The notes under the pieces: model-generated
The model's input: only the letters and a program-made list of their open reading frames with translations
The model's database searches: none
What the model was told of the DNA's origin: nothing
Shown: one piece after another, positions 29,300-43,868 of the stretch
How the letters are laid out: the number at the start of each line of letters is the position of its first letter
Position numbering within the stretch: position 1 is the first letter of the stretch
Made by a program: the position numbers and the translations under genes
Source: a virus
Lineage: Duplodnaviria > Heunggongvirae > Uroviricota > Caudoviricetes
Length of the DNA: 64,000 nt
Virus record (IMG/VR): IMGVR_UViG_3300013102_000003
Location: 70,644 to 134,643 of that record
Direction: 5' to 3' (one strand)

Positions 29300-29358
29300 T
29301 TACAAAACTTCATAACGGTAGAGCGGGGCTTGACGGCTCCGCTCTACTGCTGTAGTGT
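29299..29358 (+). promoter_or_regulatory. box + hairpin-loop promoter unit
   Basis: CGGTAGAGCGGGGC-TTGACG-GCTCCGCTCTACTG; -10 TAGTGT. Confidence 0.85.
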
Positions 29359-29398
29359 ATGAGTATCAGCTAGTCACCGACCAACACAGGAGGAAACA

Positions 29399-29668
29399 AT
29401 GTCAGACCTCACCATCGAAGCCACGGTTATCACCCAGTCCGGTACGGACCTCACTCCGGTCGCCGTCAAGATCAACGGAACCGGCTCCATCCCGAACGGC
29501 GCACTCCGGGCCATTGCTATGGAAGCGCTCGCCACCTTCACCGGGAGCCACGAGTCCCACCATGGCTTCAAGGTTGAGGCCGAACCGTCCTTCAAGGAAG
29601 AGATGGACGACACCATCTCCATCTTCCCGGTGTTCCGGTCGCTGGTCCGGTCCGAAGTTCCCTGCTAG
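29399..29668 (+). CDS. hypothetical protein
   Basis: AGGAGG SD. Confidence 0.8.
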   Translation: MSDLTIEATVITQSGTDLTPVAVKINGTGSIPNGALRAIAMEALATFTGSHESHHGFKVEAEPSFKEEMDDTISIFPVFRSLVRSEVPC

Positions 29669-29729
29669 TTACAAAAATTGATACGGCACCGGAGTTGACA
29701 CATAGACTACGGTGCCGTATCGTTGTAAC
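29668..29729 (+). promoter_or_regulatory. box + hairpin-loop promoter unit
   Basis: GATACGGCACCG/CGGTGCCGTATC stem; TTGACA-17-TATCGT. Confidence 0.85.
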
Positions 29730-29754
29730 TACCAACCCAACAACGGAGGACACC

Positions 29755-29988
29755 ATGGCAGCAATGACAGCAATGACCGACACCGAGGCCGCAAAGGTCA
29801 TCGAAGAGATGTTCGAGACTGCTGTAGAGGATGTACGGGAACTCTACCGCCGCATCGAAGAACTGCGGAAGGACTTCCAGACCGACCCGTGGGAGGATAC
29901 GGCGGCGCAGATCAAGCGCCTTGAGGCCCGCCACGCAAAGCGGGCAAAGGAAGCTGCGGCACTGGCCATAGCGTCCATGAAGTTCTAG
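29755..29988 (+). CDS. coiled-coil hypothetical protein
   Basis: GGGAGGAC SD. Confidence 0.8.
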   Translation: MAAMTAMTDTEAAKVIEEMFETAVEDVRELYRRIEELRKDFQTDPWEDTAAQIKRLEARHAKRAKEAAALAIASMKF

Positions 29989-30043
29989 TTACAAAACTTC
30001 ATAGTCTAGGGCGGTTGACACCACAGCCGTCCTAGACTAGAGT
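29988..30043 (+). promoter_or_regulatory. box + hairpin-loop promoter unit
   Basis: TAGTCTAGGGCGG/CCGTCCTAGACTA; TTGACA-17-TAGAGT. Confidence 0.85.
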
Positions 30044-30081
30044 TAGTACTACCAACACAGCAACAGTCCTAGGAGGACAAA

Positions 30082-30495
30082 ATGAGCATCGAAACCGATT
30101 CCCGCGTTAACATCTCCGACCTCTCCACCCGCGCCGAAGAGTGCGCGGACATTCTGGAAGATCCGGAGCAGTACGAACCGGAGGACATTGACGAGGCCAA
30201 CGCGGACCTCAAGATCCTTGGGGACTTCGTCGGCAACTGCAACCACTCGTACGATCCGGAGGACCCTCACAGCATCGTGTCGGCTCTGGACAGCATCGGA
30301 CAGGATGAGGACACTCTCATCTCCGAAGACACGTTCGAGGACTACGCACAGGAATACGTCGAAGACTTCGGACTCATCCCGGACACCCTCTCCGACCTCA
30401 TCAAGACCAACATCGATTGGGCCGGAGTCGCCAACGACCTGCGGTCCGACTTCTCTTCGGTGACGCTGGACGGCGTGGACTACCTCCACCGCTGA
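30082..30495 (+). CDS. ArdA-like antirestriction (DNA mimic) protein
   Basis: very acidic; FEDYAQEYVEDFG..P..L..NIDW..VANDL..D resembles ArdA C-terminus. Confidence 0.6.
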   Translation: MSIETDSRVNISDLSTRAEECADILEDPEQYEPEDIDEANADLKILGDFVGNCNHSYDPEDPHSIVSALDSIGQDEDTLISEDTFEDYAQEYVEDFGLIPDTLSDLIKTNIDWAGVANDLRSDFSSVTLDGVDYLHR

Positions 30496-30552
30496 GTTAC
30501 AAAACTTCATTACGGGGCCGGACTTGACACCACGAGTCCGGTCCCGTAGTGT
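30496..30552 (+). promoter_or_regulatory. box + hairpin-loop promoter unit
   Basis: TACGGGGCCGGACT/AGTCCGGTCCCGTA; TTGACA-17-TAGTGT. Confidence 0.85.
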
Positions 30553-30588
30553 TAGTACTACCAACCCACCAGTCCATAGGAGGACACA

Positions 30589-31131
30589 ATGACTCTCTCA
30601 AATCTTCTCATGACCGCATACGTGAACACTGCTTCGGAAGCCGGTAAAAGCGTCTGGGACATTCTGGAAGAGGTGGCACGCGAACACCTGACCGCCGAAC
30701 TCTACAAGCAGGCATCCGGCTTGTTCGACCCGGACACCGTGATCGACACACGGAAAAACGAGTACCAGCGCGGAGTGACCGAGTTGATCCTGCGATTCAC
30801 CGGCACGGAGGTTGATGATATTGGCGACGTTGCGACCACCATCAGCGAGGGTACCAGCACCGCCCACCTCCTGACGGCTGCGGACTTCGTTGAAGATGCC
30901 AACGGCTCCCTTCTCTACATCGGCCCGCTATACCCGGCTATGCAGTTCATCAAGAACAACAACGAGGTGGACGGTCCCAACCGCCACATCCTCACCGGCA
31001 AGTGGACCGTCAAGCTTGACGGCGGCAACGTCTGGGGGACCGCTGACACTGCGGAAATGGCATGGCGCTATGCAATCGGCGCGGAGTTCGGGCCGATTGA
31101 CGAGGGCTTCAGCCCGTTCCGGCTCAAGTAG
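30589..31131 (+). CDS. hypothetical protein
   Basis: TAGGAGGAC SD. Confidence 0.85.
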   Translation: MTLSNLLMTAYVNTASEAGKSVWDILEEVAREHLTAELYKQASGLFDPDTVIDTRKNEYQRGVTELILRFTGTEVDDIGDVATTISEGTSTAHLLTAADFVEDANGSLLYIGPLYPAMQFIKNNNEVDGPNRHILTGKWTVKLDGGNVWGTADTAEMAWRYAIGAEFGPIDEGFSPFRLK

Positions 31132-31187
31132 TTACAAAACTTCATACGGGTCCGGTAGTTGCATAGACTACCGGACTCGTGTAGCGT
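31131..31187 (+). promoter_or_regulatory. box + hairpin-loop promoter unit
   Basis: CGGGTCCGGTAGT/ACTACCGGACTCG; TTGCAT-17-TAGCGT. Confidence 0.85.
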
Positions 31188-31224
31188 AGGTACTACCAAC
31201 CGAACAACAGCCTAGGAGGCTACC

Positions 31225-31566
31225 GTGAACAGCGTAACCATCACCGCCATTCTTGACGAAGACGACAACAATCCGGTGTTTGAGGTCAAAGACAACAGCG
31301 GCAACGCAACGAACGCCGTCACCATCGATGACGCGTTTAGTATTGCACGCCGGTGGATCAAACCGGCCAAGTCGCTGGAAGAGATGGCCGAAGAGTGGAT
31401 CAAGGCCCACGGTACCAATGTCCTCGACGACATGCGCGAGGACGTTGAAACCGAGTTCGAACTGACCTTCACCGAAGATCAATGGGACTCATTCGCCAAC
31501 ATGATCGAGTACGCCAAGGTCACGATCATCTTCCCCTACGGCTGGGGAGTACCGCCCACCGAGTAG
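31225..31566 (+). CDS. acidic hypothetical protein
   Basis: TAGGAGG SD, GTG. Confidence 0.8.
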   Translation: MNSVTITAILDEDDNNPVFEVKDNSGNATNAVTIDDAFSIARRWIKPAKSLEEMAEEWIKAHGTNVLDDMREDVETEFELTFTEDQWDSFANMIEYAKVTIIFPYGWGVPPTE

Positions 31567-31621
31567 TTACAAAACTTCATAGTCTACGGGAGTTGACTCT
31601 ACGGCTCCCGTAGACTATTGT
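31566..31621 (+). promoter_or_regulatory. box + hairpin-loop promoter unit
   Basis: ATAGTCTACGGGAGT/GCTCCCGTAGACTAT; TTGACT-17-TATTGT. Confidence 0.85.
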
Positions 31622-31657
31622 TAGTAGTACCAACCCAGCTAGTCCTAGGAGGACACA

Positions 31658-31969
31658 ATGCCCGTAGCAACGGATACCACAATCAGCATCGACACCATCG
31701 AAGCAAAGATGGAAGAGCTTGGATACGAGACGGAGTACTTCGGTGACGACGACGCCACCATGTTCTTCATCCGGATCGGTGACAAGGAAATCACCATCTA
31801 CAACGGCGTGTCCGGTGACTACTTCCGTCCGGAGGACGTGACCGTGGCCGAATACTTCTTCGGCATCATGGGCAAGGACCTGACGGAGAAGTTCGCGGAA
31901 TGCGAATCCATCCACGACTTCGTCGCCGTGGTGCAGGACGCAATGGCCGTCAGCTTCATGGCACGGTAG
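31658..31969 (+). CDS. acidic hypothetical protein
   Basis: TAGGAGGAC SD. Confidence 0.85.
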   Translation: MPVATDTTISIDTIEAKMEELGYETEYFGDDDATMFFIRIGDKEITIYNGVSGDYFRPEDVTVAEYFFGIMGKDLTEKFAECESIHDFVAVVQDAMAVSFMAR

Positions 31970-32024
31970 TTACAAAACTTCACTACGGTAGCGGGTTGAC
32001 ACCATCGGCCCGCTACCGTAGACT
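31969..32024 (+). promoter_or_regulatory. box + hairpin-loop promoter unit
   Basis: CTACGGTAGCGGGT/GCCCGCTACCGTAG; TTGACA-17-TAGACT. Confidence 0.85.
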
Positions 32025-32030
32025 ATAACT

Positions 32031-32062
32031 ACCAACCAACCAACCAACCAACCAACCAACCA
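32031..32062 (+). repeat. (ACCA)8 tandem repeat in 5' leader
   Basis: eight perfect ACCA units. Confidence 0.9.
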
Positions 32063-32087
32063 AGAACAACCGTCCTAGGAGGACACC

Positions 32088-32444
32088 ATGGATCGTGAAG
32101 CCCGCGCCGAAATCATCTGCAACCTTGCAGGCAAGGACCCCAACAACGAAGCCGACTGGGCGGAAGCTCTGGCCGAAGCTGACCAGCAGATCGCTGACGG
32201 CTTCGAGTACGCCGCCGAGACGTATCCCGCCGCCTACCACTGGCTTGGGTGGGAGTCCGAAGCTGACTTTGAACCCGGACGCCCGGACACGTACTTCCTG
32301 ACCATCTGCCACCCGGACGGCGAAGAGTACGCGGTAATCATCCACCGGACGGTTGACGGACAGTTCCCGCTCGACGGCGAGGTTGCCAAAGGCAAGGAAG
32401 CAGACGCGCAACGGATCGTTGACGCGCTGAACGCCACGCTCTAG
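32088..32444 (+). CDS. acidic hypothetical protein
   Basis: TAGGAGGAC SD. Confidence 0.85.
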   Translation: MDREARAEIICNLAGKDPNNEADWAEALAEADQQIADGFEYAAETYPAAYHWLGWESEADFEPGRPDTYFLTICHPDGEEYAVIIHRTVDGQFPLDGEVAKGKEADAQRIVDALNATL

Positions 32445-32499
32445 TTACAAAACTTGATACGGCTCCGGACTAGACACCTAGTCCGGAGTCGTATAGACT
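32444..32499 (+). promoter_or_regulatory. box + hairpin-loop promoter unit
   Basis: ATACGGCTCCGGACTAG-ACAC-CTAGTCCGGAGTCGTAT; TAGACA-17-TAGACT. Confidence 0.8.
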
Positions 32500-32543
32500 A
32501 TTACCAACGGATCAACCAGATCCCAAAGTCCTAGGAGGACACC

Positions 32544-32951
32544 ATGGCAGACCACGGATACCACCCACTTGGCAAGTACTCTTCCGCCCGCGACGACGCG
32601 TTGCACTTCCTGTGCACCTCCGGATGGGAGATGGGCGAGTTCGGCAACGTGTCGGACTACGGAGTCTACTTCTGGCAGATCAGCAACGATCCGGCAGACG
32701 TGCAGCAGTCCAACGGCGAGTTCACTTCGATCTTTGAGGACTGGCTCAAGGACAACCCGGAGGTCACAGACAGCCCGGAACTGCGGACGGAGCTTGTAGG
32801 CCACTTCATCGTCTCCGAGACGGACAGCGGCGCTGTGAGCGTGCAGGCATTCGATAGCGTGGAAGCGCTGAACAAGTTCTGGCTTGACCAACTGGGACGG
32901 TACGCCGAGTGGGACGACTGCGGTCCGGACTACTTGGAGGACACGGAGTAG
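32544..32951 (+). CDS. acidic hypothetical protein
   Basis: TAGGAGGAC SD. Confidence 0.85.
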   Translation: MADHGYHPLGKYSSARDDALHFLCTSGWEMGEFGNVSDYGVYFWQISNDPADVQQSNGEFTSIFEDWLKDNPEVTDSPELRTELVGHFIVSETDSGAVSVQAFDSVEALNKFWLDQLGRYAEWDDCGPDYLEDTE

Positions 32952-33008
32952 TTACAAAACTTTAGAGTGGCCCTAGGCCTTGCACCTAGGGCCGCTCTAG
33001 TGTATTGT
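32951..33008 (+). promoter_or_regulatory. box + hairpin-loop promoter unit
   Basis: TAGAGTGGCCCTAGG/CCTAGGGCCGCTCTA; TTGCAC-17-TATTGT. Confidence 0.85.
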
Positions 33009-33041
33009 TGGTACTACCAACCCAGAACAACGGAGGACAGA

Positions 33042-33335
33042 ATGAAAGCTCTACTCGCCACCAAGCTTCGCAACCAGATCACTGCCATTGATCCGGTCCT
33101 GATTGTGACGCTCAGGAACGTGTCCGTGAACGGCGTCAAGTTCGGATGCTCCGGATTCATCACGGACCCGCGAACGGGTAAGCACGTGTACGTGAACACG
33201 GACCACAACCACCAGACCAACACAAAGGCCTACTACCGGACCGCCGAGAGCACCAAGGATTACACGGGAGGCATGAACCACTTCGCCTATTACGAGGACG
33301 TGGCAGCGGCAGCGGTGCACCTGCTTACCAAGTAG
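33042..33335 (+). CDS. hypothetical protein
   Basis: GGAGGAC SD. Confidence 0.85.
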   Translation: MKALLATKLRNQITAIDPVLIVTLRNVSVNGVKFGCSGFITDPRTGKHVYVNTDHNHQTNTKAYYRTAESTKDYTGGMNHFAYYEDVAAAAVHLLTK

Positions 33336-33378
33336 TTACAAAAATTGAGAGCGGTCCTACGGGGCCGCTCTTAATTTT
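33335..33378 (+). terminator. box + promoterless terminator hairpin
   Basis: AAAATTGAGAGCGGTCC-TACG-GGGCCGCTCTTAATTTT (UACG loop). Confidence 0.8.
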
Positions 33379-33506
33379 GCCTACGCTAAGAGCGAAGCTC
33401 AGAACCGGTCTTTCTCGCCACCCGTCTCAGGGCGGCTATCATGTGGGCCTTTCGGCTTACTTCAAGCTTAGCCTACCTGCGGTGCGAAGTCAACACGGAA
33501 TCCGTC

Positions 33507-33535
33507 TTGACTCTGCGGTCTACATACACTAGAGT
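33507..33535 (+). promoter_or_regulatory. promoter (divergent pair with leftward TTGACT-17-TAAGCT)
   Basis: TTGACT-17-TAGAGT then ACTACCAG. Confidence 0.7.
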
Positions 33536-33573
33536 AGGTACTACCAGATCAACCGAAGTCCTAGGAGGACAAG

Positions 33574-34167
33574 ATGGAAACGCTCAAAGAAAACGAGAAC
33601 TTCCGTGTTCGGCTCGTTGCAGACGAGTCCTACGACAAGCCGTACGACGAGGGAGCCGTACCCGTTCTCTCCCGCGACTTCAACTACTACCGTGGCGAAT
33701 TCGAAGCCGTCAACGATCAGGCAAAGCCGTACGAGGACGCTGTAACGGAAGCGTGGAACAGGCTCAACCGGGACAGCGACGTTCTGGCGCGGTACCTCCG
33801 CATCTTCCACGGCGCGTACTCCATCATGGAGGACTCTTCAAGCAACTGCGCATACCTCGCATTCGACACGGCAGCGTGGCGTGAGAGCCACGGATTGACG
33901 GACGAGTACTTGGATGCTCACCCGGACGTTCTGGACCGTCAGAAGCTCGCAGAAGGCTCGTTGAGCGAGGTCATGGCGTGGGCGAACGGCGAGGTCTACG
34001 GTTACGAACTTGAGAAGAAGGCTACCGGATGGGTTGTCTTCGCTGACGAGAACCGCGAAGACGAGGCATTCACCCGGTGGGAAGTCATTGATTCCTGCTA
34101 CGGATTCTACGGCTATGACGTGGCGAAGGAAGCAGCGGAAGAGGCTTTCGACAACGCTACGGAGTAG
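33574..34167 (+). CDS. acidic hypothetical protein
   Basis: TAGGAGGAC SD. Confidence 0.85.
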   Translation: METLKENENFRVRLVADESYDKPYDEGAVPVLSRDFNYYRGEFEAVNDQAKPYEDAVTEAWNRLNRDSDVLARYLRIFHGAYSIMEDSSSNCAYLAFDTAAWRESHGLTDEYLDAHPDVLDRQKLAEGSLSEVMAWANGEVYGYELEKKATGWVVFADENREDEAFTRWEVIDSCYGFYGYDVAKEAAEEAFDNATE

Positions 34168-34223
34168 TTACAAAACTTCACTAGGGCCGTAGGCTTGACT
34201 GGTCTACGGTCCTAGTGTATTGT
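34167..34223 (+). promoter_or_regulatory. box + hairpin-loop promoter unit
   Basis: CACTAGGGCCGTAGGC/GTCTACGGTCCTAGTG; TTGACT-17-TATTGT. Confidence 0.85.
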
Positions 34224-34261
34224 TTGTAGTACCAGATCAACCGAAGTCCTAGGAGGACATC

Positions 34262-34600
34262 ATGAAACTGCATTCCGACAAGCTCACTGAGGCGGATATC
34301 CGCAAAGCACTGGACACGGCACGCGGCAAGGGCCACGTCACCGGAGGCCTTGAATGCTACATGCTGGAAGAGCAGGTCTCTAGGAGCCGTGCTAACGGCT
34401 TCGAAATCCGCCTTGGCTCCACATACGCGGACGGCATCCACAAGCGCAAGACGATGGACAACAGCGGCAACTACGCCGCGACGTGGCACGAGTGGGGATG
34501 GTTCATTGTGGAACTGTTCGCACTTGACAGCGGGATGACGTTCGGGCGGTACATGTCCGAAAGCGACTTCCACGGCCAGACGCGGTACGCGTTCTGCTAG
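34262..34600 (+). CDS. hypothetical protein
   Basis: TAGGAGGAC SD. Confidence 0.85.
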   Translation: MKLHSDKLTEADIRKALDTARGKGHVTGGLECYMLEEQVSRSRANGFEIRLGSTYADGIHKRKTMDNSGNYAATWHEWGWFIVELFALDSGMTFGRYMSESDFHGQTRYAFC

Positions 34601-34655
34601 TTACAAAACTTCACTAGGGCAGGGACTGGACACGGTCCCTGTCCTAGTGTATTGT
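34600..34655 (+). promoter_or_regulatory. box + hairpin-loop promoter unit
   Basis: CACTAGGGCAGGGAC/GTCCCTGTCCTAGTG; TGGACA-17-TATTGT. Confidence 0.85.
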
Positions 34656-34689
34656 TGGTACTACCAACCAAGAGTCCTAGGAGGACAAA

Positions 34690-35190
34690 ATGCTTGAACA
34701 GGATGATTACTTCGGAGCCGATGAACTGGGTCTTGACGATTTGAACCAGTACATTCAGATCAACATCTCCGAGAAAACGGATGATGACGGCAACCGTATC
34801 GACGGTACCGTGACAGCCGTGATCGACGTACAGGAGAACCTTCGGTTCCACCGTGACCTCGACCGCGAAAAGGGGAACCCCTTCAACCAGTTGTTCGACG
34901 CTGACGGCATGTTCGCGCCGAACGTCTACAAGGCGTTGGAGACCATCATCCGGGAGCGCTACAAGGGCGAGGATTTCAGCGCTGACGGCGACGTGGACGC
35001 TGACGATGATTTCATTCAGTTCACGCTGGTGCTTGACGTGCCAGCGGAAACGACACCGGCTGAATTGGGCGGGAAGATTTGGGAAGAGACGGAGATTGTC
35101 GCTTTCCACAACGAATCCGACCCCGGAACGTTCGGCAGCCCGTACCTGTTCGGTTCGCTGATCTACGATGAACTGCGGAAGCTCGACTAG
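34690..35190 (+). CDS. very acidic hypothetical protein
   Basis: TAGGAGGAC SD. Confidence 0.85.
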   Translation: MLEQDDYFGADELGLDDLNQYIQINISEKTDDDGNRIDGTVTAVIDVQENLRFHRDLDREKGNPFNQLFDADGMFAPNVYKALETIIRERYKGEDFSADGDVDADDDFIQFTLVLDVPAETTPAELGGKIWEETEIVAFHNESDPGTFGSPYLFGSLIYDELRKLD

Positions 35191-35246
35191 TTACAAAACT
35201 TCGTACGGTCCGGAGGGTTGACAGACTCTCCGGACCGTGAGAAGCT
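35190..35246 (+). promoter_or_regulatory. box + hairpin-loop promoter unit (weak -10)
   Basis: ACGGTCCGGAGGGT/ACTCTCCGGACCGT; TTGACA-17-GAAGCT. Confidence 0.7.
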
Positions 35247-35292
35247 TTACTTACAAGGAAGCACAAACAACTACCGTCTCTAGGGGGACAAA

Positions 35293-35481
35293 GTGGATTA
35301 CTGGACCAAACGAGGATTCAAGCTCAACGGCACACGTCAGGTTGGCACGTACATTGCCAGCAAGCCGGGAAAGCATGCCGTGTTGACCACCAATATCTTC
35401 GATGAACTGGTGCACGACGGCGAATGGTTCTACACGGAGGCGCAAGCAGCCGAGGCCGTCCGCGAACTTGTCAACGTCTAG
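35293..35481 (+). CDS. hypothetical protein
   Basis: TAGGGGGAC SD, GTG. Confidence 0.75.
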   Translation: MDYWTKRGFKLNGTRQVGTYIASKPGKHAVLTTNIFDELVHDGEWFYTEAQAAEAVRELVNV

Positions 35482-35531
35482 CAAACCTGCTAGAGTCTAA
35501 GTATCAACCAAAACCGTCCTAGGGGGACAAA

Positions 35532-35828
35532 ATGACTGCATCCGTTATCACCAAACTCTCACCCGTCAACGAGGACGCTACGTGGACCAAGACCCCGTAC
35601 GCGTTGGAAATCAAAGGCCAGCCGGAACGGCGCGTGACCGTCTCCCGTATCCTCAACCCGGACACCGGAGCAAAGACCGTCCACATCGTCGCTCTCGCAG
35701 CCAACGGCGTGCCCGTGGTGCCGCTCTCGACGCTGGACCAGATCGCCCGGAACATTCTCCCCGGTGCACGCATCCGGACGCCTCACAAGGCCGACAACCG
35801 GCTGACGCGGGTTTACGCGGCCAGCTAG
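35532..35828 (+). CDS. hypothetical protein
   Basis: TTGTCA-17-TAGAGT promoter; TAGGGGGAC SD. Confidence 0.8.
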   Translation: MTASVITKLSPVNEDATWTKTPYALEIKGQPERRVTVSRILNPDTGAKTVHIVALAANGVPVVPLSTLDQIARNILPGARIRTPHKADNRLTRVYAAS

Positions 35829-35886
35829 TTACAAAAGTTGCTAAGGACTCTACCGCTTGACGGTAGGGTCCTTAGTGCTGTAGTCT
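35828..35886 (+). promoter_or_regulatory. box + hairpin-loop promoter unit
   Basis: CTAAGGACTCTACCG/CGGTAGGGTCCTTAG; TTGACG-18-TAGTCT. Confidence 0.85.
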
Positions 35887-35933
35887 ATAGATAGATGGTT
35901 CAACCGGGACCACCAAGGCTTAGGAGGCCCACC

Positions 35934-36827: not shown

Positions 36828-36859
36828 GGTACTTACCAACGAAGTCCTAGGAGGACAAA

Positions 36860-37285: not shown

Positions 37286-37332
37286 CTTACTTAGAGGGAA
37301 CAACCGGTTCCCGTGAGTCCCTAGGAGGGGCA

Positions 37333-37581
37333 ATGTTCATTGCAGTTCGCGGCAAGGCCGACCGGATGCAGGAAGTACCGGCGTACCTCTACAGCGGCCA
37401 GAGCGTCGCTACAGAGCCTGTAACGGGCCTGTACGGCACGTTCGTAGTCGTAGACACCGGCAGCGCCGACGCCTACCGCGCTAGCTACGTGGCAGGCCGG
37501 TTGCAGTCCGGTATGTTCGGCGCAACGGTGTTCGACACCATCGAAGAGGCTAAGGCCTACATCGAAGCCGAAAAGGACTAG
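37333..37581 (+). CDS. hypothetical protein
   Basis: TAGGAGGG SD. Confidence 0.8.
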   Translation: MFIAVRGKADRMQEVPAYLYSGQSVATEPVTGLYGTFVVVDTGSADAYRASYVAGRLQSGMFGATVFDTIEEAKAYIEAEKD

Positions 37582-37637
37582 TTACAAAACTTCATAGGAG
37601 CGGCGGACTAGACAATGGTCCGCCGTTCCTGTAGATT
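37581..37637 (+). promoter_or_regulatory. box + hairpin-loop promoter unit
   Basis: AGGAGCGGCGGACTA/TGGTCCGCCGTTCCT; TAGACA-17-TAGATT. Confidence 0.8.
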
Positions 37638-37672
37638 TGTTCTATCAGCCGATGAAGTCCTAGGAGGACAAA

Positions 37673-37900
37673 GTGAACAAGCGAGCCGCCGAAAAGGTAC
37701 TGGAAGAAGTCAAGGAACAGTTCGGAACGGATGAACCGGCCCTGTACGACGCCGACCACGAAGAGCTTTCGGAAGGCTCTTGGTCTATCGCGTGGGAGGG
37801 CAGCGGTATGGACTGCTGGCCTGCACACTTCAAGACGGAAGTTCCGGGAGTGTTCACGGAGCCTATCGCGTCGTGGTGCCTCGGAGTCTACGACGCGTAA
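37673..37900 (+). CDS. acidic hypothetical protein
   Basis: TAGGAGGAC SD, GTG. Confidence 0.8.
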   Translation: MNKRAAEKVLEEVKEQFGTDEPALYDADHEELSEGSWSIAWEGSGMDCWPAHFKTEVPGVFTEPIASWCLGVYDA

Positions 37901-37953
37901 CAAAACTTCATAGGGCCGGTGGATTGGACAACAGTCCACCGGTCCTGTAGTCT
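37897..37953 (+). promoter_or_regulatory. variant box (GTAACAAAACTTCA) + hairpin-loop promoter
   Basis: AGGGCCGGTGGATTG/CAGTCCACCGGTCCT; TGGACA-17-TAGTCT. Confidence 0.8.
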
Positions 37954-38000
37954 TTACTTATCGGATCAACCGAATCCGCTGAATGTCCTAGGAGGACAAA

Positions 38001-38345
38001 ATGTCTGATCGTATCTCCCGCGCCGACGTTGTTGCAGCTACCGCGTGGCTCCAGAAGGAAGCGCACCGGCTCGAAATCCTCCCGCGTGATGCCTACCTCG
38101 TTTTCTCACCCGGCAACACGAGTCAGGGCCACTCGCCGGAAGTGTCCGTGTTCCTGACCGAACCGGCCAGCAACGGACGCCAGACAATGCGCGTCAACTT
38201 CCTGCCCGCGTTCACCTACAAGACCACACGTAAGCAGGCGTGGCAGCTTATCAACGCGGCAGCGCGTGCACTGGCAGCGGTGCCCACGCGGGAAGACCCG
38301 ATCATGTGCAACGAGTGCATCGAATACAACGACCGTCAGGTCTAG
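38001..38345 (+). CDS. hypothetical protein
   Basis: TAGGAGGAC SD. Confidence 0.85.
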   Translation: MSDRISRADVVAATAWLQKEAHRLEILPRDAYLVFSPGNTSQGHSPEVSVFLTEPASNGRQTMRVNFLPAFTYKTTRKQAWQLINAAARALAAVPTREDPIMCNECIEYNDRQV

Positions 38346-38402
38346 TTACAAAACTTCACTACGGTCCTAGGTGTTGCGCCTAGGGCCGTAGTGCTGTAGT
38401 CT
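38345..38402 (+). promoter_or_regulatory. box + hairpin-loop promoter unit
   Basis: CACTACGGTCCTAGG/CCTAGGGCCGTAGTG; TTGCGC-17-TAGTCT. Confidence 0.85.
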
Positions 38403-38445
38403 ATCTATATCGGTTCAACCGGAACCGCCAAGCTTAGGAGTCACC

Positions 38446-38733
38446 TTGAAGACTGAAGTCAAGTTCACTGCATCCGTCAACAACGCGGACACGGAGGAAG
38501 AGTTCCACGGTTGGGTAGATCCCCAGTACAGCATGTGGACGCTGTTCGAGGATGAACCGGAGCGCCGCTACGTGTTCGACACGCGGGAAGAGGCGGAAGA
38601 GTTCGTTGACTCCACAATCGGAAGTGCGGACCACTTCGACGGCGAAGACTGGTACGCGGCGGATGCCAAGATGAACTTGGAGTCCGGCGAAGACTGGTCC
38701 TACCATGCACGGTTCTACGAAGTCTCAGAGTAA
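38446..38733 (+). CDS. very acidic hypothetical protein
   Basis: TAGGAG SD, TTG. Confidence 0.8.
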   Translation: MKTEVKFTASVNNADTEEEFHGWVDPQYSMWTLFEDEPERRYVFDTREEAEEFVDSTIGSADHFDGEDWYAADAKMNLESGEDWSYHARFYEVSE

Positions 38734-38740
38734 CACCAAC

Positions 38741-38770
38741 GAAAGGCCCTGCTACGGCAGGGCCTTTCTT
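38741..38770 (+). terminator. intrinsic terminator
   Basis: GAAAGGCCCTGC-TACG-GCAGGGCCTTTC+TT. Confidence 0.8.
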
Positions 38771-38942
38771 GTGTCTGCGGGAGGCTACGCGGGCTGCTGT
38801 AGGGCCTTGGACGTGCTGGCAGGCACCGGAGGGCAGGGAGCGCGTGGAAGGCTCTTAGAACGGCTGCTAGCCGTGTTTGACACGCGGCAGGGTCATAGAC
38901 TAAGCTGGTGGTAAGCGAAAGAACAATACACTAAAGGGGAAG

Positions 38943-39179
38943 ATGATGGACGGCAAGAAATTCCAGATCACGACGTTCGAGGACTGGACGGACAAGCGCC
39001 AGCCGGGGCAGACAGTGCGGGCCGGACTCTCGTGGGAAGAGGCTCTAAAGCACCTTGAGTCGGCGCGTGACGCTGATATCGACTTCGCGTTGGAGTCGAT
39101 GAAGGTTCACAAGTTCTACGAGTTCCACGACGCCAGCGGACGTATCGTGAAGCTGCAACCTCACACGGTAGTTGCGTAA
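38943..39179 (+). CDS. hypothetical protein
   Basis: TTGACA/TAAGCT promoter; AAGGGGA SD. Confidence 0.75.
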   Translation: MMDGKKFQITTFEDWTDKRQPGQTVRAGLSWEEALKHLESARDADIDFALESMKVHKFYEFHDASGRIVKLQPHTVVA

Positions 39180-39231
39180 GCGGCGAACATAGGCTAAGCT
39201 GGTATTACCAACAAAGCCTAGGAGGCACAAA

Positions 39232-39489
39232 ATGATCGCACTGGACGCTATTCACCGGGACCGTCACACTGAGGACATCACGGGAGTGACTTTCAAGATC
39301 ACCGGGGAGGACGTGAACCGCGACAACGACAAGCTACACGCCGAACTGCGGCAGCGCATCCAAGACATGCGCGTGACGATGGACATCCCCGAGCTTCCCG
39401 AATACTCCGGATGGATTCAGCCCAACTACCGCGAAGGGCAGGGGAGCATCGACTACCTGCTCATGAGCTACACAGTCGAAGGCTTCTAG
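39232..39489 (+). CDS. hypothetical protein
   Basis: TAGGAGG SD. Confidence 0.8.
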   Translation: MIALDAIHRDRHTEDITGVTFKITGEDVNRDNDKLHAELRQRIQDMRVTMDIPELPEYSGWIQPNYREGQGSIDYLLMSYTVEGF

Positions 39490-39544
39490 TTACAAAACTT
39501 GGAAGGGCCGTCAGCTTGCGCTGGCGGTCCTTTTCGCGTACGCT
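39489..39544 (+). promoter_or_regulatory. box + hairpin-loop promoter unit
   Basis: AAGGGCCGTCAGC-TTGC-GCTGGCGGTCCTT; TTGCGC-17-TACGCT. Confidence 0.8.
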
Positions 39545-39550
39545 GGTACT

Positions 39551-39694
39551 ATGAAGCTCCGGAGGCAGGGGAACCAGAGGACCCCTTTTGTAAATGGGCG
39601 GTTACAAAAATTGATAGCGCGGGCTGGCTTGACTCTGGTCATAGACTATGAGAAGATTGATTTATCAAGCAGGGAGCTTGAGGAACTGACTTAG
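39551..39694 (+). CDS. possible leaderless 47-aa peptide
   Basis: ATG 6 nt after TACGCT; overlaps next box and promoter. Confidence 0.35.
   Translation: MKLRRQGNQRTPFVNGRLQKLIARAGLTLVIDYEKIDLSSRELEELT
39586..39634 (+). promoter_or_regulatory. head-to-head box pair + -35
   Basis: TTTTGTAA-8 nt-TTACAAAA; TTGACT 28 nt after box. Confidence 0.55.
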
Positions 39695-39702
39695 GAGTCA
39701 CA

Positions 39703-40008
39703 ATGGGATTCACGATCACCCACTCTTCCCTCGAAGGCGACAACATGGGCGAGAAGCTGGAGAAGCTGGAAGTGCCCCGCGTTTACGGCACCAGCCCTGC
39801 TGAGCGTGAGAGCATCCGCGACGGCAAGGCGGGCAAGGGAACCCACTTCAAGCTCTACGACGACGACGACAACTGCTACTTCACCGGCTACTTCTACGGC
39901 GATGCAGACTCGGAGGATGCATTCCAGCCGCTCGACTGGGCAACCCACGACGCCGGATGCACTTACATCAAATACCGTCAGGCAGACGGCAAGTACGAAA
40001 CCCTCTAA
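39703..40008 (+). CDS. hypothetical protein
   Basis: GACTTAGGAGTC SD. Confidence 0.8.
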   Translation: MGFTITHSSLEGDNMGEKLEKLEVPRVYGTSPAERESIRDGKAGKGTHFKLYDDDDNCYFTGYFYGDADSEDAFQPLDWATHDAGCTYIKYRQADGKYETL

Positions 40009-40040
40009 GGAATGGGCCGGGAAACCGGCCTTTCCTTTTG
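40009..40040 (+). terminator. intrinsic terminator
   Basis: GGCCGG-GAAA-CCGGCC+TTTCCTTTT. Confidence 0.75.
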
Positions 40041-40208
40041 TCCACGGCCCAATTATTTTGTGGCTCCCCTCGTTTCCCTGCTGGTGGGCTTCATGTATTC
40101 AGTCTAAGCGCGGAACGCGTGAAAGTCAATACCGCGTTGGAGTTGCGTTGTGCTCTAGAGTATGAGAGTATTGATTCATCAGCAAGACGAAGTCCTTAGG
40201 AGGATACC

Positions 40209-40466
40209 ATGAAGTCAGTCAAGAGCAACGAACTCGAAGCCGGTACGTGGGCCGCACACGCGCACGATCTCCCCAACTGCGGAGGAATTCAGATCGGTTT
40301 GCAGGGTGAGGTTGTGGAAGTCAAGCACACCGATATGTGGGGAGTTGCTTCCGAGACCCACACAACGGTCTACCTCCGGGAACGTGGCGCGGACAAGTAC
40401 GACGTGAAGGTTCGCACGTTCCACAACTCGCACACGTGGCTGGTGCGTACGCTCCCGACGCACTAG
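40209..40466 (+). CDS. hypothetical protein
   Basis: TAGGAGG SD. Confidence 0.8.
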   Translation: MKSVKSNELEAGTWAAHAHDLPNCGGIQIGLQGEVVEVKHTDMWGVASETHTTVYLRERGADKYDVKVRTFHNSHTWLVRTLPTH

Positions 40467-40467
40467 A

Positions 40468-40523
40468 GTTACAAAACTTTCTTACACTCCGGAGTAGACA
40501 ACTGCTCCGGAGTGTGAGAGTAT
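40468..40523 (+). promoter_or_regulatory. box + hairpin-loop promoter unit
   Basis: CTTACACTCCGGAGTAG-ACAA-CTGCTCCGGAGTGTGAG. Confidence 0.75.
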
Positions 40524-40560
40524 TACTTATCGGAACAATCCGAATGACTTAGGAGTCACA

Positions 40561-40761
40561 ATGGAAACTGATTACTCGTACGGACGCTGGTGCACGGTAG
40601 CAGAGCAGCGTTGGATGATCGTGGACTCTGGCCGGTGGACGGTAGCAGTCTACGACGACAACGAAAAGCGCGTACGGCTCTTCGACAAGTCCGTTGTCTC
40701 GGAAGTCTCGGACTTCCTGCTGACAGACTCGCAGCGGGCAGCCCTCGGGTACGCGTTCTAG
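40561..40761 (+). CDS. hypothetical protein
   Basis: TGACTTAGGAGTCA SD. Confidence 0.8.
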   Translation: METDYSYGRWCTVAEQRWMIVDSGRWTVAVYDDNEKRVRLFDKSVVSEVSDFLLTDSQRAALGYAF

Positions 40762-40817
40762 TTACAAAACTTCACACGGTACGGGGACTTGCAAGAGTCC
40801 CCGTACTCGTGTAATGT
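40761..40817 (+). promoter_or_regulatory. box + hairpin-loop promoter unit
   Basis: GTACGGGGACTT-GCAA-GAGTCCCCGTAC; TTGCAA-17-TAATGT. Confidence 0.85.
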
Positions 40818-41530: not shown

Positions 41531-41564
41531 GAAAAGACCCTCACCGGTTTGGTGAGGGCCTTTC
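41531..41564 (-). terminator. terminator of leftward block
   Basis: GAAAAGACCCTCACC/GGTGAGGGCCTTTC stem. Confidence 0.65.
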
Positions 41565-41829: not shown

Positions 41830-41908
41830 ACACTACGGCAGCGGGAGAGTGTTGTCAACACAAAGCAATAGCCCCACCCTTTCGGGTGAGGCTATCAACT
41901 TTTGTAAC
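41830..41908 (-). promoter_or_regulatory. box + GAAA-loop terminator + separate promoter
   Basis: TA-GTTACAAAAGTT; hairpin 41867-95; TTGACA-17-TAGTGT. Confidence 0.8.
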
Positions 41909-42156: not shown

Positions 42157-42226
42157 AGACTATGCCCTTTGGTTCGGGCTGTCAAGCCGATAGGCCCTCC
42201 GGAGAGGGCCTATCAACTTTTGTAAC
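42157..42226 (-). promoter_or_regulatory. box + terminator hairpin + separate promoter
   Basis: GATAGGCCCTC-4 nt-GAGGGCCTATC; TTGACA-17-TAGTCT. Confidence 0.8.
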
Positions 42227-42479: not shown

Positions 42480-42536
42480 ACTCTAAGGCAGGAACAGGGA
42501 GCGTGTCAACTCCCCGTCCCTGTGAACTTTTGTAAG
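42480..42536 (-). promoter_or_regulatory. variant box + hairpin-loop promoter
   Basis: CTTACAAAAGTTCA; TTGACA-18-TAGAGT. Confidence 0.75.
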
Positions 42537-42539
42537 TCC

Positions 42540-42716
42540 TTAGAGCTTCGTGGAGCGGTTGCGTATGAAGTCCTGCACGGACTCGTTGCGCGACTCCTGA
42601 ATGCTGGTTAGGCGGCGCTCTGTGAGGCGTTCACGCTCGCCAGCGTCGAGGTATGAGACAAACTCAACGAACGCGGGAGAGAGCAAGGGAGCAGTCTTTA
42701 CAGTCTTGGCAGGCAT
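42540..42716 (-). CDS. hypothetical protein
   Basis: 58 aa ORF in leftward block, weak SD. Confidence 0.5.
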   Translation of the reverse strand: MPAKTVKTAPLLSPAFVEFVSYLDAGERERLTERRLTSIQESRNESVQDFIRNRSTKL

Positions 42717-42826
42717 GGGAGGCGTCCTAACGCGTTGGGATGGGTTGGATGGGTGAGAGTGGCCGGTGAGTGGTTTGAAGCCGTTAGGCGGGCAGACAGA
42801 CCCCGTAGGGCCTGCCTGCCGGTTGC

Positions 42827-43105
42827 CTAGTCGCAGCAGTCGCGGGAGGTGCAGTTGTGGTTGTGCAGGTTGCAGGATGATTCGGTGAGGATTCCCTCAG
42901 TGGATTCGTCGCGGTCCAACTCTTCGAAGAAGATCTCTTCGTCGCTGCCTTCGGTGCACTCGGCGCACGTTCCGGCTTCGTTGGCGTACGTCTCGCAGTT
43001 CTCGCAGCGGAACAGTGGCGGGCAGTCGCATTCGTCGCCGTACGGGCTGGCGTTCTCCCACGCGGACTGAGCGGAGCGGAAGCCGTAAGAGGAAGTGATC
43101 GACAT
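42827..43105 (-). CDS. Cys-rich acidic protein
   Basis: GAAAGGA SD; CDC, CENC, CAEC, CC. Confidence 0.75.
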   Translation of the reverse strand: MSITSSYGFRSAQSAWENASPYGDECDCPPLFRCENCETYANEAGTCAECTEGSDEEIFFEELDRDESTEGILTESSCNLHNHNCTSRDCCD

Positions 43106-43144
43106 GGTGTCCTTTCGTGGCCGGTGCATCCGGCTCATGAGTAA

Positions 43145-43191
43145 AGACTATGCCCTATCGGGCCGAGTGTCAAACTGTGAAGATTTGTAAC
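43145..43191 (-). promoter_or_regulatory. variant box + promoter
   Basis: GTTACAAATCTTCA; TTGACA-17-TAGTCT. Confidence 0.7.
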
Positions 43192-43244
43192 GGGCAGACC
43201 CTCCGGAGTGGAGAGCCTGCCCGTCGAATCAAGAGAGTGTGGGC

Positions 43245-43343
43245 CTAGCGGCCTGCCTGTAAGGTTGCCTTCCACTTGGAGAGCAGAGCGGCAGCGACTC
43301 CATAGAACGGGAGAGTGTGGGCGATACGTGAGAAAAGCTTCAT
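43245..43343 (-). CDS. 32-aa peptide
   Basis: GGAGGACAC SD, own promoter. Confidence 0.6.
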   Translation of the reverse strand: MKLFSRIAHTLPFYGVAAALLSKWKATLQAGR

Positions 43344-43386
43344 GTGTCCTCCGTTGGGTTGGCTGGCTTGGTAGGCCAGTAACTAC

Positions 43387-43445
43387 AGCCTAAGGCACCG
43401 GCTCGCGGGATGCAAGCCGGTGCCGCTGCTATTACTTTTTGTAAG
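43387..43445 (-). promoter_or_regulatory. variant box inside upstream CDS + hairpin-loop promoter
   Basis: CTTACAAAAAGT; GGCACCGGC/GCCGGTGCC; TTGCAT-17-TAGGCT. Confidence 0.7.
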
Positions 43446-43770
43446 TCAGCACGTGCCACGTGCGCGGGAGGTTCACGGACGGAACGATAACCTCATGTGC
43501 GCGGTGCGCCGGTCGCGTGTGCACGGTGCGTACGTAGGTCAGCACGTGCTTCCGGTCATAGCGCGGTACGTGCTTCATGTACTCCATCGATTCCCACGCG
43601 TCCCCAATTGTCTTGACGCTGCCCTTGCACTGCTTGACTCCCAGAGTGTCACAGTCCCACGTGTGGGCTGCGGTGGGCGTGTTGGTGGCTGCGGTGGCCG
43701 GGAGAGTGGTACCGGCTGCGATAAGCAGGGCTGCGGTGGCTGCGGTGGCGAGCTTTGCAAGGATGTTCAT
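43432..43770 (-). CDS. secreted protein
   Basis: AGGAGA SD; Sec-type signal peptide ending ATA/ATAA. Confidence 0.75.
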   Translation of the reverse strand: MNILAKLATAATAALLIAAGTTLPATAATNTPTAAHTWDCDTLGVKQCKGSVKTIGDAWESMEYMKHVPRYDRKHVLTYVRTVHTRPAHRAHEVIVPSVNLPRTWHVLTYKK

Positions 43771-43811
43771 GATTCTCCTGTTGGTTGGTACTGCTTGGTT
43801 GGTACTCTTAT

Positions 43812-43868
43812 AGACTAAGGCATGCCGACCCGAGATGCAAATCGGCATGCCCTAGCAAGTTTTGTAAC
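43812..43868 (-). promoter_or_regulatory. box + hairpin-loop promoter unit
   Basis: CTAGGGCATGCCGAT/GTCGGCATGCCTTAG; TTGCAT-17-TAGTCT. Confidence 0.85.

Follow-up and report, generated by a model that had tools for sequence, protein, structure and literature searches.

Hairpins enclosing the promoters of small phage early genes are selected on the sense strand and may insulate single-gene cassettes

We found that about 25 small early genes of a phage each end in a hairpin that encloses the promoter of the next gene, and that the pairing of these hairpins is selected on the sense strand only. The phage is a large one from soil, a 168-kb relative of Arthrobacter phages Racecar, Mimi and Atuin. 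The array occupies 29.3–43.9 kb of the window, the whole stretch of 64,000 nucleotides that was analysed. It holds about 25 promoter-linked hairpins of 10–19 bp (mode 16–17) and, besides these, about 9 stand-alone terminator-like hairpins. A sequence-only reading had described about 22 stems of 9–17 bp; hairpins do lie where it placed them, and their number and length are revised accordingly. The cargo, an ArdA-like antirestriction protein among genes that mostly lack known relatives, fits an early region, and the corresponding array of Racecar lies near the left genome end. We think it probable that each gene of the array is an early expression cassette of its own (for "host-takeover" or anti-defence), insulated by a hairpin that serves as a nested terminator or protects the 3' end.

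Each junction runs in the order stop codon, box GTTACAAAACTT, 5' arm, -35 (in the loop), 3' arm, -10, leader and ribosome site. The box is A-rich, 12 nt long, nearly invariant and overlaps the stop codon. The stem starts 14–20 nt, typically 16 nt, past the first base of the stop codon, which is just outside a terminating ribosome. In about 22 promoters the -35, of host SigA type, sits exactly in the loop with the arms symmetric around it; the 3' arm fills the 17-nt promoter spacer and ends at most 5 nt from the start of the -10. Thus the -35 and spacer lie inside the stem-loop downstream of the upstream stop codon, as had been proposed. Matches to sigma-70-type promoters numbered 16, against 6.0 ± 2.9 in shuffles, and no phage sigma factor was found in the phage. 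The promoter-linked modules are as follows.

29299–29358, plus: box 29299–29310; hairpin 29312–29353, 18 bp; loop TTGACG is the -35; -10 TAGTGT 29353–29358
29668–29723, plus: box; hairpin 29680–29721, 16 bp; -35 TTGACA 29695; -10 TATCGT
29988–30043, plus: box; hairpin 30002–30039, 16 bp, 2 G·T; -35 TTGACA 30015; -10 TAGAGT
30496–30552, plus, after the ArdA-like gene: box; hairpin 30508–30551, 19 bp, 3 G·T; -35 TTGACA 30524; -10 TAGTGT
31131–31187, plus: box; hairpin 31144–31182, 16 bp; -35-like TTGCAT 31159; -10 TAGCGT
31566–31621, plus: box; hairpin 31579–31618, 14 bp, all Watson-Crick; -35 TTGACT 31593; -10 TATTGT
31969–32024, plus: box; hairpin 31983–32021, 17 bp; -35 TTGACA 31996; -10 TAGACT
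32444–32499, plus: box; hairpin 32457–32494, 17 bp; -35 TAGACA 32471; -10 TAGACT
32951–33008, plus: box; hairpin 32963–32999, 15 bp; -35-like TTGCAC 32980; -10 TATTGT 33003
34167–34223, plus: box; hairpin 34179–34217, 16 bp, 2 G·T; -35 TTGACT 34195; -10 TATTGT; T-rich tail
34600–34655, plus: box; hairpin 34612–34649, 17 bp; -35 TGGACA 34627; -10 TATTGT; T-rich tail
35190–35238, plus: box; hairpin 35205–35238, 14 bp; TTGACA 35218 at the loop; no clear -10 downstream
35828–35886, plus: box; hairpin 35841–35875, 15 bp; -35 TTGACG 35857; -10 TAGTCT
36146–36201, plus: box; hairpin 36159–36196, 17 bp, 3 G·T; -35 TGGACA 36173; -10 TAGTCT
36771–36827, plus: box; core 36790–36815, 10 bp, lengthened by outer CACTAG/CTAGTG; loop TGCGAG, -35-like TTGCGA 36799; -10 TAAAGT
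37228–37285, plus: box; hairpin 37240–37276, 16 bp, 2 G·T; -35 TTGACG 37256; -10 TAGAGT
37581–37637, plus: box; hairpin 37594–37632, 17 bp, 3 G·T; -35 TAGACA 37609; -10 TAGATT
37897–37953, plus: box variant GTAACAAAACTT; hairpin 37910–37948, 17 bp, 3 G·T; -35 TGGACA 37925; -10 TAGTCT
38345–38402, plus: box; hairpin 38357–38393, 17 bp; -35-like TTGCGC 38374; -10 TAGTCT 38397
40468–40521, plus: box; hairpin 40480–40519, 18 bp; -35 TAGACA 40495; poor -10 GAGAGT
40761–40817, plus: box; core 40779–40806, 11 bp; loop TGCAAG, -35-like TTGCAA 40789; -10 TAATGT
42480–42536, minus: box 42525–42536; hairpin 42489–42522, 13 bp, 2 G·T on the minus strand; -35 TTGACA 42509–42504; -10 TAGAGT ending at 42480
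43812–43868, minus: box 43857–43868; hairpin 43815–43855, 14 bp; -35-like TTTGCA; -10 TAGTCT

Stems 35205 and 40480 keep the -35 in the loop with a poor -10. The remaining hairpins of the array are listed next.

33335–33378, plus: box and stand-alone terminator; core 33348–33371, 10 bp, UACG, extended to 33341–33378 by A-tract/T-tract pairing; no promoter in the loop
38741–38768, strand unassigned: stand-alone terminator hairpin; perfect 12 bp, C(UACG)G loop, T-rich tail, no box
39489–39532, plus: box and hairpin 39503–39532, 13 bp, loop TTGC, then TTTTCG; downstream, at 39601, a second box with a hairpin-less promoter
40014–40031, plus: short stand-alone terminator; 7 bp, GAAA loop, T-tract
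41533–41563, strand unassigned: terminator hairpin where the plus- and minus-strand cassette sets converge
41868–41908, minus: box 41897–41908 and stand-alone hairpin 41868–41895, 12 bp, GAAA loop, T-rich tail; promoter TTGACA after the hairpin, not within it
42189–42226, minus: box 42215–42226 and stand-alone hairpin 42189–42214, 11 bp, UCCG loop; promoter after the hairpin
42791–42820, minus: stand-alone hairpin; 13 bp, UACG loop, 2 G·T on the minus strand
43190–43224, minus: hairpin, 15 bp, preceding box 43180–43191 and a hairpin-less promoter
43394–43445, minus: degenerate box 43434–43445 and hairpin 43394–43424, 13 bp

The hairpins are far beyond chance. A motif-independent palindrome scan, in which G·T and A·C were scored equally, returned 38 hairpins in window 26–45 kb, and 28 of the 60 strong hairpins in the genome fall within the 20 kb holding the array. 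Folding energies ranged from -20 to -35 kcal/mol and lay about 7 sd under shuffles. The arms of a cassette pair with each other at 99.3%, and when 3' arms were swapped among cassettes (500 permutations) pairing fell to a mean of 43.8% and a maximum of 53.5%. The variable arm core is only 34% identical between cassettes and each pair position shows 4–7 pair types across them, which bears out the earlier claim that sequence varies while complementarity is kept. Since a promoter sets no sequence constraint on its spacer or on positions -36 to -52, the stem sequence is free to drift as long as pairing is retained.

On the sense strand G·T outnumbers A·C by 43:1 in this phage, in agreement with the view that nearly all mismatches are G-T, and by 37:2 in Racecar. 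Metagenome relatives gave 10:3 (L029), 28:1 (L039) and 27:0 (L050), 65:4 in sum, so that the five phages combined reach about 145:7. The 8 hairpins of minus-strand genes contain 12 wobbles on their own sense strand and 0 A·C, and in Atuin the polarity of wobbles likewise follows gene direction. This flip indicates that wobble polarity is tied to transcription, not to one particular DNA strand. Folding favoured the sense strand over the antisense strand in 92 of 94 hairpins, with a margin of about 6.5 kcal/mol. Among similar hairpins across phages we counted 364 double changes and 210 one-sided wobble changes, all of them pair-keeping, against 27 pair-breaking changes. For example, hairpin 31566 and its L037 counterpart differ at two pair positions, each altered in both arms so that pairing stays intact, and comparison of hairpin 35828 with a similar L050 hairpin revealed a compensatory A-T to C-G change.

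Taken together, pairing, strand-specific wobble and compensatory change argue for selection on a single sense strand, and therefore a symmetric dsDNA cruciform or palindromic protein site cannot account for the pairing. The preference for RNA or sense ssDNA over a dsDNA cruciform is thereby upheld. The selected strand would most likely be RNA, and sequence by itself would also be compatible with sense ssDNA.

RNA tetraloops had been read at four sites, and all four loop coordinates are correct (GCGA 36801, GCAA 40791, GAAA on the minus strand 41880, UACG 33358). However, the GNRA reading of 36801 and 40791 did not hold: GCGA and GCAA belong to the -35 variants TTGCGA and TTGCAA and so give no independent support for RNA tetraloops. 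True UNCG or GNRA loops are found in the stand-alone terminators (UACG at 33358, 38753 and 42804; GAAA at 40021 and 41880; UCCG at 42200). In several cassettes (33348, 41868 and 42189) this position is taken by a classical tetraloop and T-tract terminator, and the promoter follows downstream.

The promoter also occurs on its own. Five hairpin-less TTGACA-17-TAnnnT promoters on the plus strand at 26832–28591 (26832, 27205, 27947, 28277, 28563) abut or overlap stop codons, and others lie at 33507, 35468 and 44300, the last being the first promoter of the minus-strand set. Since identical promoters exist without hairpins, the promoter does not need the stem, and the function of the stem is separable from it.

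In the explanation that we favour, pairing would be selected in the sense transcript arriving by read-through from the gene upstream. The RNA hairpin would end or attenuate that transcript and may cap its 3' end against exonucleases, and each strong promoter would thereby be shielded from read-through. Each gene would be a self-contained unit, which recombination in the conserved flanks could add, remove or relocate; the same has been proposed for the promoter-early stem-loops (PeSLs) of T4-like phages. Like Rho-independent terminators, the elements here would form GC-rich RNA hairpins soon after a stop codon in which sense-strand wobble pairs are tolerated, and the stand-alone members 33348, 38741, 40014, 41533, 41868 and 42189 match such terminators in their UNCG/GNRA loops and T-rich tails. 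In contrast, the promoter-embedded stems are longer (14–19 bp), have weak, A/T-rich bases and mostly lack the 7–9-nt U-tract; most are followed by 2–5 U in 9 nt, as the sequence-only reading had noticed. On these grounds they appear to be atypical intrinsic terminators. An actinobacterial RNA polymerase is reported to require a U-tract, with NusG helping at suboptimal terminators (PMC3993855). Efficient intrinsic termination is accordingly in doubt, and attenuation or protection may be all that the stems provide.

Sense-strand selection, the frequent absence of a U-tract and nearly perfect stems of 14–19 bp, about 22 bp once pairing of box and tail is counted, which exceed what a terminator needs, would also suit RNA processing sites. 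Here host RNase III or another double-strand-specific nuclease would cut read-through early transcripts in the stems, as in the T7 early region, leaving a protective half-stem on each message with no termination. The T7/T3 early RNase III sites (e.g. R1.1) are likewise structured hairpins between successive early genes; selection on them acts on RNA and a protective 3' stem remains after cutting, two features that would be predicted for the array as well. We nevertheless regard processing as unlikely. Cutting is needed in T7, whose early genes depend on shared upstream promoters, but with one promoter per gene it is unnecessary for separating messages here; T7 sites have internal loops and about two helical turns, whereas the stems here, at under two turns, would be short substrates for RNase III. 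No RNase III gene is present in the phage, and several cassettes carry the classical terminator at the same position.

Rivals placed outside RNA function fare worse. The -35 centred in symmetric arms at about 22 promoters, and perfect palindromes with 4–7-nt spacers able to extrude, could point to a promoter switch in which a supercoil-driven cruciform, or a fold of the non-template strand formed in the course of transcription, hides the -35 and tunes activity. This is quite improbable: a cruciform needs both strands paired, yet wobble is sense-only (about 145:7) and flips with gene direction, the same promoter layout exists without any repeat, and stand-alone hairpin versions hold no promoter. 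Slighter still is the chance that the hairpins are kept for recombination, as folded ssDNA sites through which gene cassettes move, either like the attC sites of integrons or as substrates of a phage recombinase. Varied sequence with one-strand conserved structure does resemble attC, and every junction is a mosaic boundary, but neither a tyrosine nor a serine recombinase is encoded in the genome, extrahelical bases and inverse core sites are absent from the stems, and breakpoints lie in the conserved flanks. The non-template strand of highly transcribed DNA is more prone to deamination, so transcription-associated C-to-T mutation of neutral palindromes could give a sense G·T excess of no function. 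We give this the least credence of all, since a ratio of 20–40 to 1 far exceeds known strand biases, the sense strand has A > T and no G excess, the opposite of the prediction, and compensatory double changes (364) stand against 27 pair-breaking ones.

The nested terminator or 3'-end-protecting hairpin covers the stem but gives the near-invariant box no role. The box is a short asymmetric motif with about 30 intergenic copies, all in one orientation relative to transcription, and in this it resembles the stoperators of cluster A mycobacteriophages (L5). In contrast to stoperators, the box has an unrelated sequence, a fixed place in a promoter-terminator module and no known repressor.

The closest known system is the PeSLs, composite promoter-terminator motifs of RB49/phi1, T4/PST and KVP40/nt-1 (PMC2839356, Arbiol et al. 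2010; PMC4122927, Comeau et al. 2014), and the array is best described as a compact variant of this kind, already known in T4-like phages. RB49 PeSL stem-loops terminated transcription in a reporter assay (PMC2839356). Termination and mini-circles were demonstrated for PeSLs (PMC2839356; PMC4122927), whereas termination in the array is a prediction. PeSLs and the array alike occupy a hyperplastic region, in the gaps between small early genes of unknown function. Each unit joins an AT-rich stretch to a stem-loop, a ribosome site and a host sigma-70-type promoter that is close to consensus and has a 17-nt spacer, and for each a terminating or attenuating effect on upstream transcription has been proposed. 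In both, related phages differ at the junctions by insertion, deletion, replacement and reordering. However, the PeSL stem-loop is just upstream of the promoter, whereas here the stem encloses the -35 and the spacer is its 3' arm. The PeSL stem is relatively conserved (G-run/C-run), whereas the stem here is almost free in sequence. A near-invariant 12-nt box overlapping the stop codon also sets the array apart, as do an actinobacterial host and a phage unrelated to T4.

Related phages reshuffle genes exactly at the hairpin/promoter junctions. Where cross-phage junction pairs had one homologous flank, the other flank was homologous in 0 of 34. In relatives, breakpoints map to the conserved box and to the -10/leader/start-codon flanks and not to the inside of stems, as expected of homologous recombination.

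The hairpins of the array lie within gene junctions of a fixed order. A stop codon (usually TAG) is followed by the box, a 12-nt A-rich motif, and then by 0–3 bases, the 5′ arm, the loop, the 3′ arm, a TAnnnT hexamer, a leader and AGGAGG. The loop is or includes a TTGACA-like hexamer and the TAnnnT hexamer is found 17–18 nt past this −35. A consensus scan returned 16 sigma-70-type promoters compared with 6.0 ± 2.9 in shuffles, and with a looser scan about 22 junctions were found to have a TTGACA-like hexamer, a 17–18-nt spacer and TAnnnT. The conserved leader and its AGGAGG site follow 19–84 nt (mostly 20–40) past the −10. We found that the 3′ arm occupies the promoter spacer, ending no more than 5 nt from the first base of the −10, and that the commonest stem length, 16–17 bp, is the length of the spacer. 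The stem is made from two promoter parts that are free of sequence requirement, and because it is built from such parts it varies freely.

The source virus record is 168,556 bp long with terminal repeats, and the window corresponds to its bases 70,644–134,643. Its portal protein is 64–67% identical to those of the Arthrobacter phages Racecar, Mimi, Talia1610 and Atuin, which have 194-kb genomes. Small genes dominate the window. One set runs rightward from about 26.8 to 41.1 kb and a second runs leftward from 44.3 to 41.5 kb, with about 30 junctions between genes of 60–200 aa. A Pfam family was absent for 18 of the 20 genes scanned and one gene was ArdA-like; this gene (30082–30495) matches the ArdA antirestriction family at 27.3 bits, just at the curated cut-off of 27, and would suit an early function of the array against host defences. 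Searches of the phage genome detected neither a sigma factor gene nor an RNase III gene. A search for a T7-like RNA polymerase also gave no match in the genome, but its control was equally silent.

A sequence-only reading had described these hairpins as variable in sequence yet kept in pairing, with G-T pairs on the sense strand, and our counts confirm and strengthen this. G·T and A·C carried the same penalty in palindrome scoring, which kept the counts free of bias towards wobble. A scan anchored on the box gave 28 hairpins scoring at least 8, in which 374 positions were Watson-Crick, 43 were G·T, one was A·C and one was another mismatch (binomial p = 5e-12). A box-independent scan found 38 hairpins in 26–45 kb. 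For rightward genes the sense strand held 43 G·T against 5 A·C, four of the latter in palindromes within genes or in over-extended stems and one in a cassette hairpin (29312–29353). For leftward genes the tally on their own sense strand was 12 G·T to 0 A·C. Pairing is cassette-specific: arms pair with their own partners at 99.3% of positions, and when 3′ arms were swapped among cassettes the mean was 43.8% and the maximum 53.5% (500 permutations). Identity between cassettes is 34% in the variable arm core, and 4–7 pair types occur at each pair position.

Folding energies lie between −20 and −35 kcal/mol, some 7 sd lower than those of shuffles, and 28 of the 60 strong hairpins of the whole genome fall within the 20 kb that contain the array. 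The sense RNA fold was the more stable one for all 27 hairpins here and for 92 of 94 across six sequences, where the mean was −27.4 kcal/mol for sense and −20.8 kcal/mol for antisense. RNAalifold on a MAFFT alignment of 23 modules returned no consensus structure, because stem lengths and loop offsets differ between modules and sequence alignment fails to register the pairs. Structure-registered pair counts were used in its place. Rfam at a permissive threshold gave no family match, only five chance-level matches, none near the gathering score.

The same design is present in relatives. A near-identity DNA search with 5 kb of the array against the phage records available, from which close ones may be absent, gave no match, and IMG/VR locus searches by protein gave one distant match for a cassette protein and none for the ParB-like neighbour. 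In Racecar the same layout follows directly on a ParB-like gene close to the left end of the genome; the stems there are entirely different and carry 37 G·T against 2 A·C. In Atuin, the wobble of rightward cassettes is on the plus strand and leftward cassettes are the mirror image. In both Racecar (1–21000) and Atuin (1–18000) the array begins a few kb inside the left end of the genome, after the ParB-like gene, which is leftward, and its last part, as in this phage, is a short set of leftward cassettes that converge with the others. Three like arrays, L029, L039 and L050 (G·T to A·C of 10:3, 28:1 and 27:0), and a fragment, L037, were found when metagenome contigs were scanned for the pattern. 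The total over five phages is about 145:7. Microbacterium phage Pumpernickel, which is more distant (portal identity of 45.7%), has ordinary terminators only and lacks the nested design.

We compared similar hairpins between phages and found that changed positions held 364 double changes that keep the pair and 210 one-sided changes that keep it as a wobble, against 23 one-sided and 4 double changes that break it; these comparisons are non-independent events, although their direction is unambiguous. For example, A-T became C-G between the hairpin at 35828 and L050, G-C became C-G together with two wobble steps between 32951 and L039, and both sides changed at two positions with pairing kept between 31566 and L037.

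These data indicate that it is one strand, the sense strand, in which the structure is maintained. That strand is naturally taken to be RNA, since the transcript of the upstream gene would run into the stem, and sense single-stranded DNA is also consistent with the sequence. The transcript of the nested promoter begins past the stem. For a cruciform in double-stranded DNA, or for a palindromic site bound by protein, G·T and A·C should be tolerated to the same degree and polarity should not follow gene direction, and we consider a DNA-level switch very unlikely. An N4-type hairpin promoter, a 5–7-bp DNA hairpin on the template strand read by a phage RNA polymerase, does not match stems of 14–19 bp whose stability is confined to the non-template (sense) strand. 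That the wobble polarity arises from mutational bias is hardly credible. Deamination of the non-template strand predicts an excess of T and G in the sense strand, whereas this region has more A than T and no excess of G, and such a process cannot yield hundreds of double compensatory changes. A polarity of about 145:7 over some 95 natural variants, flipping with gene direction, is unusually clean evidence from sequence for a single-strand structure.

The sequence-only reading had also proposed selection at the RNA level and overlap with the promoter, and both of these stand. Its argument from GNRA loops is weak. All of its loop coordinates are right, but GCGA (36801) is a piece of the −35 variant TTGCGA, and GCAA (40791) of the variant TTGCAA. 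UNCG or GNRA tetraloops proper are found at the stand-alone terminators at 33358, 38753, 40021, 41880, 42200 and 42804.

Promoters and stems also occur apart from each other, at the following sites.

26832, 27205, 27947, 28277 and 28563: perfect TTGACA-17-TAnnnT promoters without a hairpin, abutting or overlapping stop codons; the box is present only at 26832
33507, 35468 and 44300: further promoters without a hairpin, the last being the first of the leftward set
33348, 41868 and 42189: box followed by a short terminator with a tetraloop and T-tract; the promoter is placed past the stem or at another site
41,533–41,563: terminator hairpin where the rightward and leftward sets meet

The stem is thus not part of the promoter. 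Since there are promoters without hairpins and stems that lie outside the promoter, the hairpin is functionally assigned to where the upstream message ends, and most cassettes interleave it with the next promoter. The sites from 26832 to 28591, the first cassettes of the array, form a second and even more compact type of junction. A non-coding stretch of 130 nt (33377–33506) separates the terminator at 33348–33371 from the hairpin-less promoter at 33507. YTTAGAAYGGC occurs three times (38854, 41448 and 41496) compared with 0.06 expected, in each case in a GC-rich non-coding stretch of 150–200 nt after a stand-alone terminator, and a similar motif is found in a Racecar spacer at about 15.8 kb. 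These stretches may be small RNAs or regulatory sites.

We think it probable that the hairpins act as terminators or attenuators and also protect 3′ ends. The RNA hairpin would attenuate or end transcription reading in from upstream and would cap the upstream message against 3′ exonucleases. The strong promoter would thereby be insulated and each gene would become a self-contained unit. The stem starts 14–20 nt (typically 16) from the first base of the stop codon; by known ribosome footprints this would place it just beyond the terminating ribosome, which supports such a mechanism. Six embedded stems pass a simple terminator scan. The hairpins are GC-rich as in intrinsic terminators, for which a U-tract of 7–9 nt is expected, but U-tracts are mostly missing, as the sequence-only reading had noted: 2–5 U lie within the next 9 nt and only 7 of 38 hairpins have at least 5. 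Together with weak A/T-rich stem bases, this argues against efficient termination. A mycobacterial RNA polymerase has been reported to require a U-tract, with NusG aiding at suboptimal sites (PMC3993855). RNase III-type processing alone is unlikely. About two turns (at least 20 bp) are expected for such sites, and the stems are 10–19 bp, reaching up to 22 bp if the flanks pair. It is highly improbable that the hairpins are recombination sites in single-stranded DNA. Integron attC sites, with their conserved core sites, extrahelical bases and a tyrosine recombinase encoded nearby, do not resemble these stems, which are nearly perfect and have no bulges, and no tyrosine or serine recombinase was found in the genome by searches that detected their controls. 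A further reading takes the nesting to be functional and not merely compact. An upstream transcript ending inside the next promoter would free polymerase, with sigma nearby, at the point of restart, so that polymerase is relayed from cassette to cassette while box, stem and −10/leader reassort as three independent pieces. We regard this as quite unlikely; if true, it would describe a dedicated system of gene shuffling and expression in actinobacterial phages.

Soil and root metagenome contigs of related strains map to the array piecewise, with joints at the following positions.

33344 to 37242: joint in the box
35886 to 38408: joint in the −10/leader
37282 to 39206: joint in the −10/leader
36862 back to 33054: joint at the start codon

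In one contig the hairpin between 30509 and 34641 is replaced by a different, equally paired hairpin. In L037 an identical box links the end of the 32088 gene to what is found here at 31566, a hairpin with its promoter and gene, so that gene order is reversed relative to the window and the switch lies at the box. Among 34 cross-phage junction pairs with one clearly homologous flank, none had both flanks homologous. The hairpin-less junction 35481/35532 remains syntenic in L039. These comparisons indicate that the junctions are recombination seams. The arm-identity measure misregisters hairpins with indels (e.g. 35190 versus L039 3963), and we make no strong claim as to the flank with which a hairpin travels.

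The closest described system is the PeSL of T4-like phages, in which the spaces between small early genes hold an AT-rich stretch, then a stem-loop, next a sigma-70-type early promoter and finally a ribosome site (PMC2839356, PMC4122927). The PeSL stem-loop was shown to terminate transcription and PeSL junctions mediate modular shuffling (PMC2839356, PMC4122927). Mini-circles are a further feature of PeSLs. Most features that define PeSLs are found in the array: intergenic repeats among small, poorly conserved early genes, an AT-rich stretch upstream of the −35, the promoter, the ribosome site with its start codon, and junctions at which related phages show indels, replacements and reordering. 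By this analogy the array appears to work like a PeSL array. However, the PeSL stem-loop is just upstream of the promoter, whereas here most stems enclose the −35 and the 3′ arm is the spacer; a PeSL-like order is found only at 41868 and 42189. The array further differs in its free-sequence stems, in an invariant box overlapping the stop codon and in its actinobacterial host. Composite promoter-terminator cassettes, described so far from T4-like phages of Gram-negative hosts, would extend to large actinobacterial phages in a tighter design, with a terminator-type hairpin assembled from those parts of the next promoter that are under no constraint. Since the cultured relatives Racecar and Atuin share this design, function is directly testable. 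The design bears on how actinobacterial RNA polymerase may end transcripts at hairpins without U-tracts, and the cassettes could be used in Actinobacteria as a natural library of insulated parts for expression.

The box, GTTACAAAACTT, is near-invariant, with 41 matches at up to two mismatches compared with 6.9 expected. About 35 sites lie in window 23677–44329, overlapping the stop codon and always oriented with transcription. Of its 12 positions 8 are A or T, where the genome has 57% G+C, and in the array the 5′ arm intervenes between it and the −35. An exact search of IMG/VR gave single chance matches only, and a literature search gave unrelated primer matches only, with no paper found that describes the box. 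We also found no description in the literature of such arrays or repeats in Arthrobacter phages or in Racecar. The Racecar box is letter-for-letter the same, although the portal proteins have diverged to 64–67% identity, and the Atuin variant is TAACAAAACTT. In some cassettes the A-tract of the box pairs with a T-rich tail. Candidate roles for the box are a terminator A-tract, an UP-like element, a protein site or recombination homology.

Two further observations concern the leaders. In many of them (window 28326–40560) the ribosome site lies within a small palindrome, GTCCT-AGG-AGGAC. The leader of the gene at 32088–32444 contains a perfect (ACCA)x8 microsatellite (32031–32063), at which metagenome reads are cut.
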